A stretch of DNA of 64,000 bases. Origin: Patescibacteria group bacterium. GTDB lineage: Bacteria; Patescibacteriota; Patescibacteriia; SG8-24. The stretch covers positions 1,714 to 65,713 of the forward strand of contig JBAYFM010000008.1 in NCBI GenBank assembly GCA_041667185.1. Reading direction: 5' to 3'. Below, one piece after another: positions 3,843 to 61,789 of this stretch. The notes under the pieces were generated by a model, which was not told the origin of the DNA, ran no database searches, and was given only the letters and a program-made list of their open reading frames with translations. Within the stretch, counting starts at the first letter, position 1; every line of letters begins with the position of its first letter. The position numbers were made by a program, and so were the translations under genes.

Positions 3843-4096
3843 AGAAAAGAGCAGCGTATTTTTGCTCTTGGCCGTCCTCCTCATTTAACCGCCCGATTTT
3901 GGCGGCTTCATGGCGGCCCGTCTATTCTCAATGATTTTGGAGCCCGAGGGGTCCTCCTCTCCGCCTTCGGGTTTATTCCAGCCTTGCGGCCAGGGCTCTA
4001 CTTTCAAGATAGCACGGGTTCTCATACCCGGCGCAAGTACCCTGTCAAGCCCCAGTTAAAATTTGTCGACCGGGTGTCGTAAAATCGGATGTCAAC

Positions 4097-4161: not shown

Positions 4162-4347
4162 TCAAGGTCGGTATCCCTTGATGAATTTGACCGCTCTTTT
4201 TCCGAGCTCATCGCTGGCGTCGCCATAGAGGATCTCGATAACCTCGACATCGCCGCCGGTCTGCGGACCCTTGTTCGAGATGCGGATATGATAGGCGCCC
4301 TTCTTGTCGCGGACGATGGTCGCTGAGTATTGTTTGTTGTTGGCCAT
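4162..4347 (-). CDS. small hypothetical protein (61 aa)
   Basis: MANNKQYSATIVRDKKGAYHIRISNKGPQTGGDVEVIEILYGD... Start at internal Met, with GGGAG SD-like motif 7 nt upstream (CCCGGGAGTTGTTCC ATG). Flanked by a terminator. Confidence 0.5.
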   Translation of the reverse strand: MANNKQYSATIVRDKKGAYHIRISNKGPQTGGDVEVIEILYGDASDELGKRAVKFIKGYRP

Positions 4348-4746
4348 GGAACAACTCCCGGGTTGAAGGAACAATAGATTCATCTTCGGCTTCCTGACGG
4401 CAAAAGTCAAAATTTGCCAAGTTAAGGCGGATACGCCATGGACAGCACTGTAAAATAAACTGGCGGGTGGTGAAAAAACGTCCAGTGCCGGGTTGACAAA
4501 TCGGCCTCGTTGTGTTATATTTCTTCGTTACATCGCGCGTCATTCCAGCAGAGGAACTCAGACCAGATACGGACGGGAGGTGTTCTATGGGTGGAGGTTG
4601 AGAAATAAAAACGACAAGTTCTTTTCCCAGGCATCTTGTTTCCACTCACAGCGGGTGGCCGAAAACGAAAAGGGCGCGTCCTTTCCGTAAGGCCGCCTCT
4701 TTTTTTACCAAAAAACCGGCCAGTGGCCGGTCTTTTGATATCGAAG

Positions 4747-6887: not shown

Positions 6888-6988
6888 GGGTAATTCATGT
6901 TTGATACTTAAAATTTTACCATATTTTAGGTCAAAAATCCATATTGACCGGCCTTGGAGCTAAAGGTATCCTAAGCGTTGGATGATTC

Positions 6989-7416
6989 GGTTTGACGGGT
7001 ACATTCAGTACAAATAAAATGGACGAAATACTTGATCATTTTGGCGGACCCTTGGGCTCTTAGCTTAATGGGAAGCCGCGGTTGTGCGGCTTGCGCCGAG
7101 AGGTGGCGGCCTTAGCCGCGCATCTGTAGTGTTCAGTCGCTAGCGCGACTAAACTGCGTCATAGAGCACCCGGTTTGACGAGAACATTCAGAATAAATAA
7201 AACGAACGAGATCCTCGATAATTCTGGTGGACCTGGGCCTGTAGCTTAACGGGAAGCCGTGGTTGTGCGGCTTGCGCCGAGAGGTGGCGGCCTTAGCCGC
7301 GCATTCGTAGTGTTCAGTCGCTGGCGCGACTGAACCGCGTCGTAGAGCAGCCGTTTTGACGAGCACTTTCAGAAACTATAAAAGGACGAGATACTTGATC
7401 ATTTTGGCGGACCCTT
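6989..7416 (+). repeat. two tandem ~182-bp units, each carrying a 5' leader plus a tRNA-Ala 5' fragment interrupted by a 91-nt GC-rich hairpin insert (family-1 element)
   Basis: Units start at GGTTTGACG at 6989, 7172 and 7353. tRNA-Ala 5' fragment GGGCTCTTAGCTTAATGG at 7054-7071 (diverged copy 7235-7252). Inserts at 7072-7162 and 7253-7343 (GGAAGCCGCGGTTGTGCGGCTTGCGCCGAGAGGTGGCGGCCTTAGCCGCG...AGTCGCTAGCGCGACT...). The tRNA sequence then resumes with AGAGCACCCGGTTTG (7163-7177) and breaks in the anticodon loop. Confidence 0.85.
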
Positions 7417-7490
7417 GGGCTCTTAGCTTAATGGCAGAGCACCCGGTTTGCATCCGGGAGACGTGGGTTCGATTCCCACAGGGTCCACCA
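7417..7490 (+). tRNA. tRNA-Ala (anticodon UGC)
   Basis: Acceptor GGGCUCU/AGGGUCC with G3:U70. Anticodon loop UUUGCAU, T-loop UUCGAUU, encoded CCA. Cloverleaf folded by hand. Confidence 0.9.
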
Positions 7491-14594: not shown

Positions 14595-14737
14595 GTCGAT
14601 GAGTCTTTAGCTGCTTCTATATTATAATTCTATCATAATCAGCCCGGGCGCGTCATTAAGCCGGTCTGACGGTAAAATTAGGCGCGCCCCGTCCGATGGT
14701 TTACTTTTATCCGATATCTGCTTATAATTGGCTTCAT

Positions 14738-17700
14738 ATGGCGAAATTTCATCTACCATCGATCGAAGAGGAGCAACTGAAAAAATGGGACGAAAAAGAC
14801 GTTTTCCGCCAGGTCCTGAACAAGCCGGACCAGGGAAAGTCGTTCGTTTTTTTCGAGGGGCCGCCAACGGCCAACGGCAAGCCGGGCATTCATCATGTGC
14901 TCGCGCGGTCGTTCAAGGACGTCATCCTGCGTTTCCGCACCATGCAGGGACACAAGATCGACCGCAAGGCCGGCTGGGACACGCATGGCCTGCCGGTCGA
15001 ACTCGAGGTCGAGAAACAGCTCGGATTCACGCAGAAGAAACAGATCGAGGAGTTCGGCATCGCCAACTTCAACGCCAAGTGCAAGGAGTCGGTCTGGAAG
15101 TATCTCGACATCTGGCAGCAGATGACGAAGCGCATCGCGTTCTGGGTCGATCTCGAACATCCCTACATCACTTACACCAACGATTACATCGAGTCGCTCT
15201 GGTCGATCATCAAGGAGATCGATCGCAAGGGTTTGTTGTACCAAGGTTATCGCGTGACGCCGCACTGCCCGCGCTGCGTGACTTCGCTGTCATCGCACGA
15301 GTTGGCGCAGGGCTACAAGGATGTCGACGATCAGTCGGTCTACGTGAAGTTTCCGATCGATGCTGCGGCCAAGCGCTACTTCCTCGTCTGGACCACGACG
15401 CCGTGGACGCTGCCGGGCAATGACGCTCTCGCTGTCGGCGCGGCCGTGACCTATGCCGAGGTGAAGATGAAAGCGACGGGCGAGACCTATATTTTGGCTA
15501 AAGACAGGCTTGTCAGTCTCGACGGCGAGTACGATATCTTGTCGGAAAAGACCGGGGAGCAGCTGGTCGGCATCGCGTACCAGCCGCTTTATGACACCGC
15601 CAAGGCGTTCACCGCGGCCGCTGAATCTTCACGTCTCGCGAACGCCTACAAAGTTTATGCGGCTGGTTTCGTTTCGACGACCGACGGCACCGGCATCGTC
15701 CACATCGCGCCGGCGTTCGGCGAGGATGACGCGCGTCTGGGCGAAGCGGCCAAGCTGCCGACTCTGCTCACGGTCGATTCGACCGGCATGATGCTGGCCG
15801 AGGCTCCGGGCAAAGGCAGGTTCATCAAGAAGGCCGACGAGGACGTCAAAGCTGATCTCACCGCGCGCGGCCTGCTTTACAAATCCGAGACCTATCGCCA
15901 CGCCTACCCGTTCTGCTGGCGCTGCGGCACGCCGCTCCTGTATTACGCCAAGAATTCCTGGTACATCCGGATGTCCGAGTTGCGCGAGAAACTGCAACAG
16001 CACAACCAGGCGATCAACTGGGTCCCGGATCACATCCGCGACGGCCGTTTCGGCGAGTGGCTGCGCGAGGTCAAGGATTGGGCGCTGTCCCGTGAGCGTT
16101 ATTGGGGGACGCCGCTGCCGATCTGGCGCTGCGAGTCGTGTCAGGAACGCCTGACCATCGGCGGCATGGAAGAGATGAAGAAGCTCGCGCGTCCGGGCAA
16201 TACTTATTATCTGCAGCGCCACGGCGAGGCCGAGAATAACGTTGCGAACGTGGTGAGCTCGTATCCGGAGCTTAAAGAATGGCATCTGACGGCTCAGGGA
16301 CGCGAACAGGTCCAGGTTGCCGCCAAGGAATTGAAGCAGCATGGCATCGATCTGATTTTCGCCTCCGACCTGCTGCGCACCAAAGAGACCGCCGAGATCA
16401 TCGCCGCGGAGCTTGGCTTGCCGGTCGTTTATGATCCGCGCCTGCGCGAGCTTGGCGTCGGCGAGGCCAACGGCAAAACCATCGCGGAATTCCACGCGCA
16501 ATTCGCGAGCAAACTGGAACGTTTCGACAAGCCGGCCGTCGGCGGCGAGAATCTGCGCGACTGCCGCCGTCGCTTGGTCGCGTTCGTCAAAGAACTGGAA
16601 GCGAAATATTCCGGCCAGCGAATCCTGATCGTGAGCCACGGCGATCCGATCTGGATGCTGGATTCCGGATTCGGCGGCGCGAGCGACGAAGAGACATTGA
16701 CGTGGCGGTATAACGCCGTCGGCGCGTTCAGCGAGTTCCGGCCGGATGGCCTGCCGCGCGACGATCAGGGCCGCATCGATCTGCACCGCCCCTATGTCGA
16801 TGAGGCGGCGCTCGCGTGTCCCAAATGTTCTGGCGCCATGAAACGGTCGACCGAGGTTCTCGATTGCTGGTTCGACTCGGGCGCCATGCCGTTCGCGCAA
16901 TGGCACTACCCCTTCGAGAACGCCGAACGCATCGACCAGGGCCGGAATTTCCCAGCCGACTACATCTCCGAAGCCATCGATCAGACCCGCGGCTGGTTCT
17001 ACACCCTCCTCGCGGTCTCGACCCTGCTCGACAAGCCGACGCCGCCCTACAAGAACGTCATCTGCCTCGGCCACGTGCTCGATGCCAAAGGCCAGAAGAT
17101 GTCCAAGTCCAAGGGCAATGTCGTCGATCCCTGGCTGATGATCTCCAAGTACGGCGCCGACGCCATCCGTTATCATTTCTTCACCGTGAACCAGCCGGGC
17201 GAACCGAAATGTTTCGACGAGAAGTCGCTCGACGAGGTGACGAAGAAAGTTTTCCTGATCCTCTGGAACGTCCTGACTTTCTGGCAGATGTATGCCGGGG
17301 AGAAAGCGCGTGCGACCGACGCATCGCCGGCTTCGCAGAACGAACTCGACCGCTGGATCCTGGCGGAACTGGCCGAACTCGGCTCGCAGCTCACCGGACG
17401 ACTGGAGAGTTACCAGGTCGTCGACGCCTGCCGCAGCCTGGGCGACTTCATCAACAGCCTGTCCACCTGGTACCTGCGCCGCAGCCGCGACCGTTTCAAG
17501 GGCGAGCCGACGGAGCGCCAGGCAGCCGTAGAAACGCTGGGTTACGTGCTTTTGACGCTGTCTCGGCTCATGGCGCCGTTCACGCCGTTCTTGGCCGAGG
17601 CACTGTACGCCGAGGTTGGCGGGCCGCTGGCTTCGGTCCACTTGGACGCGTGGCCGACGCTGAAGTCGCTTGAAGACGCGACCTTGCGCACCAAGATGGA

Positions 17701-18187
17701 GTTCGTGCGCCAGGCCGCTTCGCTCGGACTCGAGAAGCGCGCTGTCGCCGGCATTCCGGTGCGCCAGGCACTCGCCAAAGCGACGGTCCGTTCGGTCCAG
17801 GTTTTCGACCAGTGGATGAAAGAGATCGTGGCCGTGGAACTCAACGTCGAAGCGGTCGAGTCCGAGGTGATCAAGGAGGCGAAAGATGCCGCGGTCGAAC
17901 TCGACACCAACATCACGCCGGAACTCCGCCGCAAAGGCGCGGTCCGCGAACTCGTCCGCAACATCAACGACCTGCGCAAGACCGCTGGACTCACGGTGCA
18001 TGATCGCATCGTCTTGAATTGGAATGCCACCGGCGAATTCTGGCCGCAGGTCTTTGCCGAACATCGCGAGAGCTTGCTCAAAGACGTGCTGGCCGCGGAT
18101 ATCGCGGTCGGTTCCTCTGGCGAACTCGGCAACCGCGAGCTCGAGGTCGCCGGCGAGAAGGTCTGGCTCGGCATCAATAAAGTCTGA
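14738..18187 (+). CDS. ileS: isoleucyl-tRNA synthetase (type 2) with an inserted histidine-phosphatase (PGAM-like) domain
   Basis: EGPPTANGKPGIHH (HIGH class I), KMSKSKGN, editing/CP1 region, Zn knuckles CESC...CPKC. About 190 aa between the knuckles (nt ~16195-16775) carry RHGEAE, SDLLRTKETA and IVSHGD motifs of the histidine phosphatase superfamily. Start at MAKFHLPS (14738), with TATAAT 8 nt upstream. Confidence 0.9.
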   Translation: MAKFHLPSIEEEQLKKWDEKDVFRQVLNKPDQGKSFVFFEGPPTANGKPGIHHVLARSFKDVILRFRTMQGHKIDRKAGWDTHGLPVELEVEKQLGFTQKKQIEEFGIANFNAKCKESVWKYLDIWQQMTKRIAFWVDLEHPYITYTNDYIESLWSIIKEIDRKGLLYQGYRVTPHCPRCVTSLSSHELAQGYKDVDDQSVYVKFPIDAAAKRYFLVWTTTPWTLPGNDALAVGAAVTYAEVKMKATGETYILAKDRLVSLDGEYDILSEKTGEQLVGIAYQPLYDTAKAFTAAAESSRLANAYKVYAAGFVSTTDGTGIVHIAPAFGEDDARLGEAAKLPTLLTVDSTGMMLAEAPGKGRFIKKADEDVKADLTARGLLYKSETYRHAYPFCWRCGTPLLYYAKNSWYIRMSELREKLQQHNQAINWVPDHIRDGRFGEWLREVKDWALSRERYWGTPLPIWRCESCQERLTIGGMEEMKKLARPGNTYYLQRHGEAENNVANVVSSYPELKEWHLTAQGREQVQVAAKELKQHGIDLIFASDLLRTKETAEIIAAELGLPVVYDPRLRELGVGEANGKTIAEFHAQFASKLERFDKPAVGGENLRDCRRRLVAFVKELEAKYSGQRILIVSHGDPIWMLDSGFGGASDEETLTWRYNAVGAFSEFRPDGLPRDDQGRIDLHRPYVDEAALACPKCSGAMKRSTEVLDCWFDSGAMPFAQWHYPFENAERIDQGRNFPADYISEAIDQTRGWFYTLLAVSTLLDKPTPPYKNVICLGHVLDAKGQKMSKSKGNVVDPWLMISKYGADAIRYHFFTVNQPGEPKCFDEKSLDEVTKKVFLILWNVLTFWQMYAGEKARATDASPASQNELDRWILAELAELGSQLTGRLESYQVVDACRSLGDFINSLSTWYLRRSRDRFKGEPTERQAAVETLGYVLLTLSRLMAPFTPFLAEALYAEVGGPLASVHLDAWPTLKSLEDATLRTKMEFVRQAASLGLEKRAVAGIPVRQALAKATVRSVQVFDQWMKEIVAVELNVEAVESEVIKEAKDAAVELDTNITPELRRKGAVRELVRNINDLRKTAGLTVHDRIVLNWNATGEFWPQVFAEHRESLLKDVLAADIAVGSSGELGNRELEVAGEKVWLGINKV

Positions 18188-19973: not shown

Positions 19974-20260
19974 GTGCGCCCGTAGTACAACGGATAAGCC
20001 CGCTTGATATAATAAGGAAAAGATATGCGGGCTTGCGGCCAGAGGTGGCGGCCTTAGCCGCGTGTCTATAATGTCCGATTGCTGCGCAACCGGACTGAGC
20101 CTAAGCCCGCTTGATATAATAAGGAAAAGATATGCGGGCTTGCGGCCAGAGGTGGCGGCCTTAGCCGCGTGTCTATAATGTCCGATTGCTGCGCAACCGG
20201 ACTGAGCCGTAGAATGCGATCTTTAAAACCCCATCAGTAGACGGAAGTCGTCGATTTTTT
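19974..20260 (+). repeat. tRNA-Arg 5' fragment (acceptor to D-loop), two tandem family-1 hairpin elements (R1, R2), then a short tRNA fragment
   Basis: GTGCGCCCGTAGTACAACGGATA (19974-19996) matches the tRNA-Arg 5' end. R1 19997-20103 and R2 20104-20210 are near-identical (AGCCCGC-ATrich loop-GCGGGCT, TGCGGCCAGAGGTGGCGGCCTTAGCCGCG, GTCCGATTGCTGCGCAACCGGAC). AGAATGCGA (20211-20219) is the tRNA D-stem 3' / anticodon-stem 5' side. Confidence 0.85.
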
Positions 20261-20368: not shown

Positions 20369-20423
20369 AGTTTCCCGCCTTTGGCGGGACCCCGCCTTCC
20401 TCGAAGTAAATATAAGTGGCGGG

Positions 20424-20733
20424 GCAACGGATAAGCCCGCCCCGCACTTCGTGCGGGGACCAGGGCGGGCTTGCGGCCAGAGGTGGCGGCCTCCGCCGCG
20501 TGTTCTTTGTGTCCGGTCGCTGCGCAACCGGACTGGGCCTAAGCCCGCTTGATATAATAAGGAAAAGATATGCGGGCTTGCGGCCAAAAGTAGCGGCCTT
20601 AGCCGCGTGTCCATAATATCCGGTCGTTTAGCGACCGGACTGGGCCATAGAATGCGAGCCTCCGAAGCTTGAGATCCAAGTTCGATTCTTTGCCACCCGC
20701 AGCTTTGGCGGAGGGTGGTTAGCGGGCGCACCA
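20424..20733 (+). pseudogene. disrupted tRNA-Arg copy: D-loop fragment, two family-1 elements (R3, R4), tRNA 3' part with a 28-nt hairpin in the T-stem; no 5' acceptor strand
   Basis: CAACGGATA (20424-20432); R3 20433-20540 (variant with inner hairpin CCCCGCACTTCGTGCGGGG); R4 20541-20646; AGAATGCGAGCCTCCGAAGCTTGAGATCCAAGTTCGATTCTT (20647-20690); 28-nt hairpin TGCCACCCGCAGCTTTGGCGGAGGGTGG (20691-20718); TAGCGGGCGCACCA (20719-20733). Confidence 0.75.
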
Positions 20734-32030: not shown

Positions 32031-32099
32031 GCCGCCGCGGCATTTCAGAAATCGCGGACCACAAAGTTATTCGTTTCAATGAACGGCGGGGTCCCGCCC

Positions 32100-32230
32100 G
32101 GAGGCGGGAGAACCGGAGTATATTCCGCGGCCTATGATGCAGTCTGACCGCGAAGCGGGCGGACAGTTACAAATTCGCGGCTAAGGCCGCCACTTCTCGG
32201 CGCAACCCGCATGACCGCGGGTTACAAAAA
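32100..32230 (-). repeat. orphan copy of the family-1 GC-rich hairpin element (minus-strand orientation)
   Basis: Reverse complement reads TAACCCGCGGTCATGCGGGTTGCGCCGAGAAGTGGCGGCCTTAGCCGCGAATTTGTAACTGTCCGCCCGCTTCGCGGTCAGACTGCATCAT. This is collinear with the tRNA-Ala inserts (core TGCGCCGAGA[G/A]GTGGCGGCCTTAGCCGCG identical). The neighbouring TCTCCCGCCTCCGGGCGGGACCCCGCC is also shared with 20371-20400. Confidence 0.8.
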
Positions 32231-38818: not shown

Positions 38819-39371
38819 GTCAGGTCGACCGGATGATCGCCCCGCAGTACTGCGGGGAGGAAAGTCTGAACACCTCCCGCATTCATGCGGGAAAAGGGAC
38901 AATCGCTAACGGCGACCGGGAGCAAGCGTCGGAATTTCTTTTCAATAGCCAATTGGCGAAAGAAGTTTCGCGTCCAAGCCCAGGGAGAGTGCAACAGAAA
39001 ATACACCGCCTGCGCCCCGTGATGACGAGCGAAAGCGAGTCATTTTACGGGGCTAGAAGCGTCACCGGCGCAAGCTAGTGCCGACAAGGCAAGGTTGAAA
39101 TCGTGAGGTAAGAGCTCACGCGGGACTGCGGGGCGTGAGCCGTGAAAGCGGCTTTTACGCCCCCACGGACAAGAACCTTCGGGTTCCAATATCTGGCCGC
39201 GCGAGCGGCGCCGTGGAAAACCCTGTCCGGTGCAAGAGCAAGTTTGGTAGCTCGCAGGCCGCAGTCGCAAGGTTGCGGCCAAGGCCGCTGGCAACAGCGG
39301 TCGCAGAGAGATGATCATCGCCTCGCGGTCAAACGCGGGGTACAAAATTCGGCTTACAGGCCGGCCTGACA
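38819..39371 (+). ncRNA. rnpB: RNase P RNA (bacterial type A)
   Basis: GGAGGAAAGTC (P4 5' strand), GTTGAAATCGTGAGGTAAGAGCTCACGC (GGUAAGAGCGCACC-like P10-12 region), and ACAAAATTCGGCTTACAGG (P4 3' strand ACAGAAnnCGGCUUA). 5'/3' ends can pair as P1 (GTCAGG...CCTGAC). Confidence 0.8.
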
Positions 39372-39377
39372 AGAAAA

Positions 39378-44306: not shown

Positions 44307-44764
44307 AATTAAAATGTGTTCGCCGCGGAGAGCCGCAGCCGGAGCGAGAGCACTCCTGATCTATAAGAGTCCCGTTTGCACGGGTGAATATTGGGTTAAT
44401 GTGTTCCTCAACCATCTCTAACGGATACGACCGTTACCGCAGAGGAAAGTGGGAGATGCGGAGGGGATAGTTCGCTATCCGCTTTGCGCCGCTCATTTTC
44501 TTCTGTCCTTATCAGGCAACTGCCTCTATCATTATTATACCATAATGACAGATCCGGTTGTTTGCTGTCGTCCGATACCATCCCACCTAGCTCGAGCCGC
44601 GCTCGAGCGATGTGGGATGGTGCTGCGGGAGGGAGTCCCGCTCGCTTCGACTCGCGGTCCGGGGCGCTGCGCACTGGCGCTTCGCCGGCTCGCGCCTCTC
44701 GCGCCCTTCGACTCCTTATTTATACCAGATGACTGTCGCCGCCCTGTGGGCGGCACCAATCATC

Positions 44765-44850
44765 TGGTGCTGCGGGAGGGAGTCGAACCCTCATGACCTT
44801 GCGATCGCTAGCTCCTGAAGCTAGTGCGTCTGCCATTTCGCCACCGCAGC
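44765..44850 (-). tRNA. tRNA-Leu (anticodon CAG), type II with long variable arm
   Basis: Reverse complement GCUGCGG...CUAGC-UUCAGGA-GCUAG...GAGGG-UUCGACU-CCCUC-CCGCAGC-A-CCA. G37; 86 nt. Confidence 0.85.
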
Positions 44851-45117
44851 GTATATTTTTATTGCGGGAGGGAGTCGGCCTCCCTCGTAAAAGATCTGAA
44901 ATTACTCGGTCGGCCCGGGGCGCCCCTTGGCGCCCGTGCGCCGCTGCGTTGACTTGCGGCGCACCCCTCATGACCTTGCGATCGCTAGCTCCTGAAGCTA
45001 GTGCGTCTGCCATTTGTTTCGCTCGCGTAGAAATTGTAATCGCTCGCGAAACCCCGGGCACGTCTTCGCGCCCGTGCGGCGCTCGCCGGTTCGCGCCGCA
45101 CCCACCGCAGCGAGAAC
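44851..45117 (-). pseudogene. disrupted tRNA-Leu copy carrying two related ~80-nt GC-rich hairpin inserts (family-2) in the D-stem and T-stem
   Basis: In tRNA orientation: GCTGCGGTGG, insert A (plus-strand 45016-45100; GTGCGGCGC-loop-GCGCCGCAC GGGCGCGAAG...), AAATGGCAGACGCACTAGCTTCAGGAGCTAGCGATCGCAAGGTCATGAGGG, insert B (44885-44963; GTGCGCCGC-loop-GCGGCGCAC GGGCGCCAAGGGGCGCCC...), then a degenerate T-stem/acceptor GGGAGGCCGACTCCCTCCCGCA. Confidence 0.75.
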
Positions 45118-45159
45118 TTTTGTCCGTATAATATGCCTGATTTTGGCTGATTTGTCAAG

Positions 45160-56726: not shown

Positions 56727-56801
56727 TGGTCGGCCCGGATGGATTCGAACCATCGACCAACGCCTTATAAGAGCGCTGCTCTACCGCTGAGCTACGGGCC
56801 G
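56727..56801 (-). tRNA. tRNA-Ile (anticodon UAU)
   Basis: Reverse complement CGGCCCG-UA-GCUC-AGCGGUA-GAGC-A-GCGCU-CUUAUAA-GGCGU-UGGUC-GAUGG-UUCGAAU-CCAUC-CGGGCCG-A-CCA. Anticodon loop C-U-UAU-A-A. 75 nt. Confidence 0.75.
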
Positions 56802-57075
56802 AGATGAGTTGTGATCGAAGCGAGACTGTGCTGGTCTGACCGCCAAACGATCAGCCGAGCCTTGTCCCCCGCAGCTTCACCCTTCTTCGCTAAAGCTACG
56901 AAGGGTCTGAGGACTGCCCAGTTTTTTGTCGACGTGCCGAAACAGTTTTTGGGCAGGCCCATCGCAGCTTCAGCGAAGGTGGGGCGGATGGGGAAGCTAC
57001 GGGCCGGTAGGCCGCCAAAATATATCAATCAAGCGGCCTGTTGGCAACGGAGCGCAACGCCAGTATACTGACCCC

Positions 57076-60951: not shown

Positions 60952-61377
60952 ATGTCCAGTCCGTTTGAGATCAAAAATTTCATCGAGTCCGTCGAACGAT
61001 CTTTTTTATCGGCTGCTGACAAACAGATGCTCGCGTCCGAAGCTCGGCACGGCGTTGACCAGGCACTGTGGAGCCGTTTCAATGATCTACTCGTTGCCTG
61101 GCTGGTGGAGAATCAGGCCAAACAGGATCGAACCAGTGTGCGGCTGGACGTGGAGATCGACCGTTACACCAGAGAATACGAACATGAGAAGACCAAAATC
61201 GACCAGGAATATCGGCCGGCGCTAGAGGATGCGATCCGGCGCGGAGAATCGGCTGACAGCGGCACCTGGGCCGAATATCGTGAGAAGATCAGGCTCCTCC
61301 AGACCCAGCTGATCGCTGAAGTAAAAGCGACTTCTGCGACCGTGCTGCGCGAAGTGGTGCTGGCGACCGTCGGGTAG
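60952..61377 (+). CDS. hypothetical protein
   Basis: 141-aa ORF with coiled-coil-like charged composition. Followed by terminator AAAAACACCCCAGGGCAAGCCTGGGGTATTTTT (61402-61436). Confidence 0.45.
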   Translation: MSSPFEIKNFIESVERSFLSAADKQMLASEARHGVDQALWSRFNDLLVAWLVENQAKQDRTSVRLDVEIDRYTREYEHEKTKIDQEYRPALEDAIRRGESADSGTWAEYREKIRLLQTQLIAEVKATSATVLREVVLATVG

Positions 61378-61436
61378 GGGGAGTATAAACTGCGAGAATC
61401 AAAAACACCCCAGGGCAAGCCTGGGGTATTTTTGAT

Positions 61437-61610
61437 GGTGGGCGGCAGAGGAGTCGAACCTCTGACCTTCACAATGTCAATGTGACGCTCTAACGCCCAG
61501 TCCGGTCGTCTTGCGACCGGACACAAGAAATGCGCGGCGGCGGCCGCCACATCTGGCGTCAAGCCCGCCCTGGTCCCCGCGTTCGCGCGGGGCGGGCTTA
61601 ACCAACTGAG
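61437..61610 (-). pseudogene. partial tRNA-Val copy (D-loop to CCA) carrying a 105-nt family-1 element in the D-loop; no 5' acceptor strand
   Basis: In tRNA orientation: CTCAGTTGGTTA, family-1 element (plus-strand 61494-61598; AGCCCGCCCCGCGCGAACGCGGGGACCAGGGCGGGCT TGACGCCAGATGTGGCGGCCGCCGCCGCG...GTCCGGTCGCAAGACGACCGGAC), then TTAGAGCGTCACATTGACATTGTGAAGGTCAGAGGTTCGACTCCTCTGCCGCCCACCA, identical to the intact gene. Confidence 0.8.
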
Positions 61611-61646
61611 TAAAACAAAAAAGCCAGGTTTGACCTGACTTTCTTG

Positions 61647-61723: not shown

Positions 61724-61789
61724 TCTAATGACTTTGGGGTGTTCCTATAATAAGACCTCGCGGAAAATAAATCAAGATTCTGGGCTTGG

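Follow-up and report, generated by a model that had tools for sequence, protein, structure and literature searches.

Partial tRNA genes can arise from integrative elements or from CRISPR activity (PMC9897764), and attL/attR partial tRNA copies are attributed to integrase-mediated insertion of islands or prophages (Williams 2002, as cited in PMC9897764). The locus described here is that of tRNA-Val in a 64-kb stretch of DNA (64,000 nt, hereafter the window) from a Patescibacteria group bacterium. It resembles integrase att copies in the pairing of a complete tRNA with a partial 3' copy in direct orientation, and in that the inserted DNA appears to supply the 3' part of the working gene, with the native 3' end displaced downstream. 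It differs from them in that the block at tRNA-Val is ~150–210 nt and geneless, the repeat starts from the D-arm, the displaced copy bears a structured element (termed E below), and the pattern recurs at every tRNA locus of the window.

Structured RNA-like insertions interrupt other tRNA genes in the same phylum, in the form of group I introns at anticodon-loop position 35/36 (PMC13011429). These introns are self-splicing and lie in the anticodon loop of complete functional genes, whereas E has no group I core, lies in the D-loop, and is found in incomplete copies only. Archaeal non-canonical introns and split or permuted tRNAs (PMC4090602, PMC3978253) likewise break the tRNA at non-anticodon positions, and yield fragments with complementary flanks, comparable to the pairing of leader and trailer at tRNA-Ala in the window. 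The archaeal systems need a splicing endonuclease and a bulge-helix-bulge motif, in which two 3-nt bulges stand on either side of a 4-bp helix at the exon–intron borders, and their pieces are required for the tRNA, whereas here an intact gene is always present.

Two groups of small mobile elements offer a further comparison. TA-duplicating MITEs, such as the Neisseria Correia elements and IS630/Tc1-type derivatives, are ~100 nt long, non-coding, multi-copy and foldable. Palindrome-associated elements derived from IS200/IS605, and the REP/RAYT systems, use single-strand HUH transposition. E resembles the MITEs in length (~100 nt), lack of coding capacity, copy number, foldability, and the presence of TA at both edges, but is without terminal inverted repeats, occupies a single tRNA position, and has a fixed orientation. 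With the IS200/IS605 and REP/RAYT elements it shares the absence of inverted repeats, hairpins near the ends, a short fixed neighbouring sequence, and possibly the absence of a true target duplication. In contrast to these elements, its orientation is independent of the replication strand, its left hairpin begins at the very border, and no Y1/HUH gene was found in the window. E thus shows the defining features of the MITE, IS200/IS605 and REP elements only in part. In the literature searched we found no description in bacteria of D-loop elements like E, or of layered tRNA loci and tRNA fragment arrays, and the family to which E belongs is previously undescribed.

Results

Layout of the tRNA-Val locus

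The tRNA-Val locus was read on the minus strand, and consists of the following features, in the direction of transcription:

61747–61775, minus strand: promoter-like site TTGATT-17-TATTAT upstream of the intact tRNA-Val, in a region kept in the relatives L127 and L128
61647–61723, minus strand: intact tRNA-Val(GAC) with encoded CCA (ARAGORN; Rfam tRNA model, 70.9 bits)
61611–61646, minus strand: T1, a terminator-like hairpin and T-run after the intact gene, with no homology to the ancestral terminator
61599–61610, minus strand: stub CTCAGTTGGTTA, 12 nt, corresponding to tRNA nt 11–21
61494–61598, minus strand: element E (family-1, variant with the nested GC hairpin), AGCCCGCC...CTGGGCG, 105 nt
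61436–61493, minus strand: 3' part of tRNA-Val, nt 20–76, TTAGAGCG...CCACCA, read as the displaced ancestral 3' end
61397 (approximate)–61435, no strand assigned: T2, a bidirectional terminator that also serves the convergent ORF 60952–61377, homologous to the terminator of tRNA-Val in L128

A first-pass annotation of the window had described, downstream of the intact tRNA-Val gene and a terminator hairpin, a partial copy that matches the 3' part of that gene exactly and has an element of a repeated family at the 3' end of its D-loop. The minus-strand reading and the family alignment bear this out. The 3' fragment is identical to the intact tRNA-Val at 59/59 positions (BLAST), and the 59-nt direct repeats are separated by 153 nt without an ORF. 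The stub begins 36 nt downstream of the intact gene and contains 3 nt of the D-stem 5' strand followed by the D-loop; its final TA borders E, and TTA (at minimum TA) is repeated at both edges of the element. The annotated span, 61437–61610, needs a small correction, as the CCA end lies at 61436 and not at 61437. The 5' acceptor strand is absent from the copy as described, whereas the 5' side of the D-stem, also listed as missing, is largely present: only nt 1–10 are lost, and 3 of the 4 nt of the D-stem 5' strand are kept. The fragment was scored by Rfam as a tRNA without D-arm (30.7 bits), and ARAGORN called a pseudo-tRNA at 61436–61511.

An assembly artefact had been named as the explanation that would overturn this description. 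This objection does not hold, as two further, independent assemblies (ENA ERZ27249449 and JGI 3300037810) match 421 nt of the locus at 100% identity. A Logan contig breaks within the repeated tRNA part, as a repeat would cause.

Ancestral state of the locus

The DHH protein encoded next to the locus is 100% identical to one from a MAG labelled as a Patescibacteria group bacterium and has relatives from Uhrbacteria and Parcubacteria; that of L128 is 72% identical to it. The tRNA-Val genes of L128 (complete) and L127 (cut by the contig end) gave the same reading by inspection over the available parts. L127 is a contig of the sister species that ends within tRNA-Val, and the comparison of the Val site rests on L128. 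Further homologues of the DHH gene and its neighbours came mostly from genomes in which tRNA-Val is located elsewhere.

L128 shares the promoter region, and its tRNA-Val is identical and has a homologue of T2 immediately behind it. The L128 terminator aligns to T2 with compensatory changes in the stem, while T1 fails to align to it and had no second occurrence among all sequences compared. Because the T2 homologue stands right after tRNA-Val in L128, it is the fragment that keeps the old 3' end, and what is new is the 3' part of the intact gene together with T1. Judged from this alignment, the ancestral order was promoter, tRNA-Val and T2, and the new material amounts to ~210 nt at the TA of the D-loop, comprising the 3' part of the working gene and T1, and the stub and E. 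A simple tandem duplication was considered for this site and ruled out, because T1 and T2 are unrelated.

The tRNA-Val locus of L128 has modifications of its own. Its leader contains a GC-rich insertion of ~120 nt (4262–4384), and a T-arm/acceptor (T-loop) fragment with a different element of ~125 nt lies behind the native terminator (4510–4660). These are independent events at the same locus.

Copies of the element and their sites

A profile search found eight copies of the family in the 64-kb window. Apart from the copy at tRNA-Val, these are:

7074–7161, plus strand: Ala1, in the D-loop of a tRNA-Ala 5' half
7255–7342, plus strand: Ala2, in the D-loop of a second tRNA-Ala 5' half
19997–20209, plus strand: Arg E1 and E2, in tandem with TA between them, in a tRNA-Arg 5' fragment
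20434–20647, plus strand: Arg E3 (the nearest to the Val copy) and E4, in a tRNA-Arg 3' fragment
32135–32222, minus strand: intergenic copy with TA..TA flanks, directly after a terminator hairpin, with no recognisable tRNA

The Val element had been assigned to the same variant as the third copy at the Arg locus, and we reached the same assignment: Arg E3 and Val E are 88% identical over 68 nt (81% over the full length), and both contain the nested GC hairpin in stem 1. Comparison of the loci confirmed that the insertion point at Val is also that at Ala and Arg.

Outside the window, the family occurs in at least three related Patescibacteria genomes. Three tandem copies are present in a tRNA-Lys 5' fragment of L106 (Patescibacteria MAG STA_55), and further copies lie in tRNA-Ala 5' halves of the metagenome contigs L124 and L125 and at the tRNA-Arg locus of the sister species (L145). 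L126 contains a copy as an intergenic unit, and is grouped with L145 under tRNA-Arg in the family tally. A pattern scan of genome contigs with a loose pattern gave mostly chance matches in GC-rich genomes, L106 being the sole true one among the matches listed, while a scan of metagenomes with a tighter pattern gave three contigs, all of them true. The intergenic E sits in a unit of 146 nt that two genomes have in common at 94% identity, with unrelated flanking genes.

Every tRNA-borne copy separates nt 20 of the D-loop from A21 and points in the same direction as the tRNA, and the host tRNA is in each case incomplete and stands beside an intact gene without E. No intact tRNA gene among those examined contained E. 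Conversely, all fragments that retain a TA-containing D-loop carry E in the sequences examined, where no empty dead D-loop was seen; an order of fragment first and E later is for that reason an inferred one.

TA is present at both edges in the Arg, Val, Lys, Ala (L124) and intergenic contexts, and the spacer between tandem copies is exactly TA or NTA; the left edge of three Ala copies is GA or AA. These edges fit a target duplication, and also an A...T element located between N20 and A21 without duplication. Decay is evident in the host fragments: those at Arg contain mismatches in both D-stem and T-stem. Degenerate or shortened copies of E are represented by Arg E4 and the downstream copy of L145.

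Predicted fold of the element

When folded one sequence at a time, the Val, Arg and Lys copies gave one shared architecture, in which a 5' hairpin (P1) is followed by a three-way junction of P0, P2 and P3. The first pair of P1 takes the A of the left TA. P0 is formed by the segment after P1 with the 3' tail and closes the junction with P2 and P3, and P2 is GCGGC-N4-GCCGC. In an alignment of 13 distinct copies, the sequences of the junction (A.A.GT) and of P2 are invariant. P1 and P3 are almost fully paired over these copies, with several pair types per position, and P0 has compensatory changes at three positions, being weaker in the Ala/intergenic subfamily; covariation is thus present in P1, P3 and P0. 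P1 abuts the left border and P3 stops 8 nt short of the right one, in agreement with the subterminal hairpins of IS200/IS605-type elements.

Val E folded better than 200/200 shuffled sequences, with z = −3.2 as RNA, and z = −4.2 and −4.7 for the two strands as DNA. Counts of G-U (G-T) against A-C mismatches were ambiguous both on the strand and on RNA versus DNA. Since P1 is predicted to stack on P0, the borders of E would lie side by side; in the predicted folds both borders are at the nick of the P1/P0 stack, outside any bulge.

Searches for known families, enzymes and signals

E contains no ORF, and no promoter was found within it. No credible match to an Rfam family, intron or ribozyme was obtained at an E-value of 10 or below, and neither scans of viral collections nor BLAST searches of phage and plasmid collections gave a real match. 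Terminal inverted repeats are absent from the alignment, in which the ends have only GCCC/GGGC in common. Pfam analysis of the window ORFs of at least 80 aa that were judged likely genes revealed no transposase, integrase, reverse transcriptase or HUH enzyme, including TnpA Y1. Inspection by eye for guide-like complementarity of the variable parts of E to the host tRNA gave nothing convincing.

Divergence and orientation

The FemAB protein of L145 is 90% identical to that of the window, and the four-fold sites of its gene are 61% identical between the two species. The spacers of the Arg locus (leaders and terminators) are 63–76% identical, while the identity between orthologous copies of E reaches 84% at Arg and 90% at Ala. 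By these figures E evolves more slowly than neutral sites, unlike neutrally decaying junk, so that it may have a function.

The junctions of the Arg locus are common to the window and L145, so the Arg architecture is older than the split of the two species. L145 carries a single E at a place occupied by two identical copies in the window. Its copy downstream consists of a terminator, followed directly by a stub starting from tRNA nt 11 and a shortened Val-type E, and this layout is that of the Val locus. Stubs that start at tRNA nt 11 right after the T-run of a terminator are therefore found in two tRNA species (Val, 61599–61610; Arg of L145, ~3960–3973), and hint at a defined process rather than random recombination. 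E copies group by host tRNA species, from which jumps between tRNA species would be rare or old.

GC skew is positive throughout the window, and copies of E occur on either strand, in every case in the same direction as the tRNA. The orientation of E therefore tracks the tRNA and not replication. Such an orientation fits a role at the RNA level and an asymmetric DNA target equally.

Other tRNA loci and associated modules

Partial tRNA copies are present at 5/5 tRNA loci of the window. The tRNA-Leu(CAG) locus (44618–45130, minus strand) has a near-complete copy (nt 1–80) upstream, whose D-loop and T-loop both contain GC-rich elements of another family, ~85–90 nt long. Downstream, a T-loop fragment starts with an inverted copy of T-loop sequence. 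At tRNA-Ile(TAT), a 12-nt copy of the 5' end (56995–57006, minus strand) follows directly after a promoter-like region, ~195 nt upstream of the intact gene (56727–56801, minus strand). Because the 12-nt repeat stands at both ends, the intervening DNA looks like an insertion.

At tRNA-Ala (6944–7490, plus strand), leader and trailer are complementary, and the acceptor stem would reach ~21 bp. The 5' halves end at G35 and are repeated upstream, each with its own promoter-like site. The Ala units start at a promoter whose −35 region (GGTTTGACG) has GGTTTG in common with the anticodon loop, a microhomology for unequal recombination that would make the Ala arrays explicable without E. L125 has an array of divergent tRNA-Ala 3' halves from G35, whose trailers match the leaders of other genomes.

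Several smaller modules were also observed. The tRNA-Arg 3' fragment has a 29-nt hairpin (TGCCACCCGCAGCTTTGGCGGAGGGTGGT) inserted in the 3' strand of its T-stem, at 20691–20719 (plus strand). A third small repeat, CCCGCC..GGCGGGACCCCGCC, is present near the Arg locus (20374–20396, plus strand) and just downstream of the intergenic E (32085–32108, minus strand). The RNase P RNA (38821–39372, plus strand) is 552 nt long, compared with 367 nt for the model, and contains a 38-nt hairpin, CCCCGTGATGA...TCATTTTACGGGG, at 39015–39052. This hairpin is found twice more downstream of tRNA-Lys in L106 (6124–6160 and 6401–6437), and is a small module common to the RNase P RNA expansion and tRNA trailers. 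An isoleucyl-tRNA synthetase-like protein of 1163 aa (14696–18187, plus strand) has a histidine-phosphatase domain (His_Phos_1) inserted at residues 505–671.

Discussion

We tentatively propose that the fragment is quite possibly a dead remnant of tRNA-Val carrying a TA-flanked, non-coding mobile element that is tolerated solely in dead copies. Starting from the observed anatomy of the locus and the ancestral T2, a recombination event, the type of which is conjectural, would have added a second tRNA part (nt 11/23–76) and T1 downstream of the native promoter and 5' end. The tRNA-Val in use would stay intact, and the old 3' part (nt 11–76) would turn into a dead copy that keeps T2. E belongs to an ORF-less, strongly folded family that appears restricted to Patescibacteria; its membership, TA borders and structural conservation are directly observed. 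It would be a non-autonomous mobile element that inserts between D-loop nt 20 and A21 with TA at each edge, having a very narrow target, ..G(N)TA|GR.., in tRNA D-loops. Insertion into a sole live gene would destroy it, and copies would for this reason be seen only in dead tRNA copies or outside tRNAs, where they may stack in tandem. The adjoining ends of the predicted fold would suit recognition and cutting by a trans-acting enzyme encoded outside the window.

We infer mobility of E at the DNA level, and with it the order of events and the enzyme, from the TA borders, the tandem copies, the unrelated contexts, the degenerate and shortened copies, and the decay of the host fragments. Against mobility count the lack of terminal inverted repeats, the lack of a mobility enzyme among the window ORFs scanned, and the grouping of copies by host tRNA. 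The slower-than-neutral change of orthologues, the fixed sense orientation and the recurrent stub starts at nt 11 count against E being mobile junk. These last observations bear on a rather unlikely alternative, in which selection maintains E within tRNA transcription units, either as a structured RNA with a function or as a hairpin module of the DNA to which a protein binds. It would stand in the leaders of Ala, Arg and Lys and in the trailers of Val and Arg, the D-arm pieces would belong to the module, with D-stem nt 11–13/22–24 closing it, and TA borders and arrays would record past spread rather than a present role. Such a module would account for orthologous E exceeding both the four-fold sites and the Arg spacers in identity, for the invariant junction and P2 and the covariation in P1, P3 and P0, and for one compensatory change between the Arg orthologues of the two species (aligned by eye). 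It would also explain an orientation that is always sense to the tRNA or the upstream gene, whatever the direction of replication, an Arg architecture that is common to two species down to the junctions, and nt-11 stubs that preserve closure of the D-stem in two tRNA species. It sits less well with the position of the Val copy and of the L145 downstream copy directly behind terminators, the latter copy being shortened as well, or with the loss of invariant positions in Arg E4 and a copy number of one against two between sister species. The mismatch counts do not favour the sense strand, no Rfam family was matched, and nothing found points to a partner or ligand.

The fragment and the element may instead have arrived together. 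A block of ~210 nt (replacement tRNA nt 23–76, T1, stub and E) would then have moved as a single unit, either by inserting at the TA of the D-loop in a self-healing manner, or in the form of a small circle of stub, E, tRNA 3' part and T1 integrated by a single crossover in the 59-nt homology, so that the essential gene was never disrupted. Crossover of [nt 11–21, E, nt 20–76, T1] with the native gene gives the exact order observed, with T2 behind the fragment; the Arg locus can be read likewise, and the intergenic E travels with its flanks in the 146-nt unit. Joint arrival would further account for the element in every D-loop-bearing fragment, and for locus-foreign leaders and terminators near fragments (T1; the Ala leader types). 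We nevertheless regard it as unlikely: no circular or free form is known, and unequal recombination at GGTTTG could account for the Ala 5'-half arrays with no need of E. Three routes in fact give the same product at Val, namely entry of E into the displaced fragment, integration of a circle, and rescue of an E-disrupted gene by an E-less fragment. A remnant of the attR type, left by an integrase-bearing island or prophage in tRNA-Val that was later almost wholly deleted, with E unrelated, is very unlikely. A partial tRNA beside a complete one is the standard footprint of integrative elements (PMC9897764), and the direct repeat of the tRNA 3' part is present. Only 153 nt separate the repeats, though, with neither ORF nor integrase; the repeat starts in the D-arm/D-loop and not in the anticodon loop, T-loop or 3' end; and the recurrence of this small-scale pattern at 5/5 window loci and in relatives would need repeated, near-complete internal deletions. 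It is hardly credible, finally, that a functional tRNA is interrupted by E as an intron or other intervening sequence, with the fragment as one half of a split or trans-spliced tRNA-Val, or that E is cleaved out. The D-loop is a structurally tolerant position, the fold joins both ends of E, and Patescibacteria are rich in tRNA introns; those published are group I introns of the anticodon loop (PMC13011429). E is just 105 nt long and matched no group I or II intron or ribozyme. The fragment lacks nt 1–10, for which the sole matching 5' piece in the window is the intact gene; it also adjoins that gene. Three points count against intron-like cleavage of transcripts at the element borders, which the first-pass annotation had implied: the fragment is itself no complete gene, it is located behind a terminator, and no known ribozyme or intron was matched. 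Integrase remnants and spliceable introns are thus both poorly supported.

The tRNA genes of the streamlined, single-copy Patescibacteria genomes would be expected to be among the targets least tolerant of insertion, yet partial copies with structured elements at specific positions have piled up at all five tRNA loci of the window and at loci in several relatives. In practice, such remnants are scored as tRNAs by ARAGORN and Rfam, and they break short-read assemblies. If E is mobile, as we favour, it would be a small element without recognisable ends or enzyme and with an unusually exact target, for which dead copies serve as safe havens; if it is selected, it would represent a structured nucleic acid of a new class, linked to tRNA genes. 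It is conceivable, if somewhat unlikely, that E, the other GC-rich elements and the host tRNA pieces together form a new Patescibacteria-specific system of structured non-coding modules at fixed positions of tRNA genes (D-loop 20/21 and T-loop). The modules may travel with replacement parts of the tRNA and thereby always spare the essential gene, or may have been recruited, as RNA or DNA, into tRNA transcription units and kept there by selection. Under such a system, the tRNA-Val locus would be a minimal and well-preserved example of one event.
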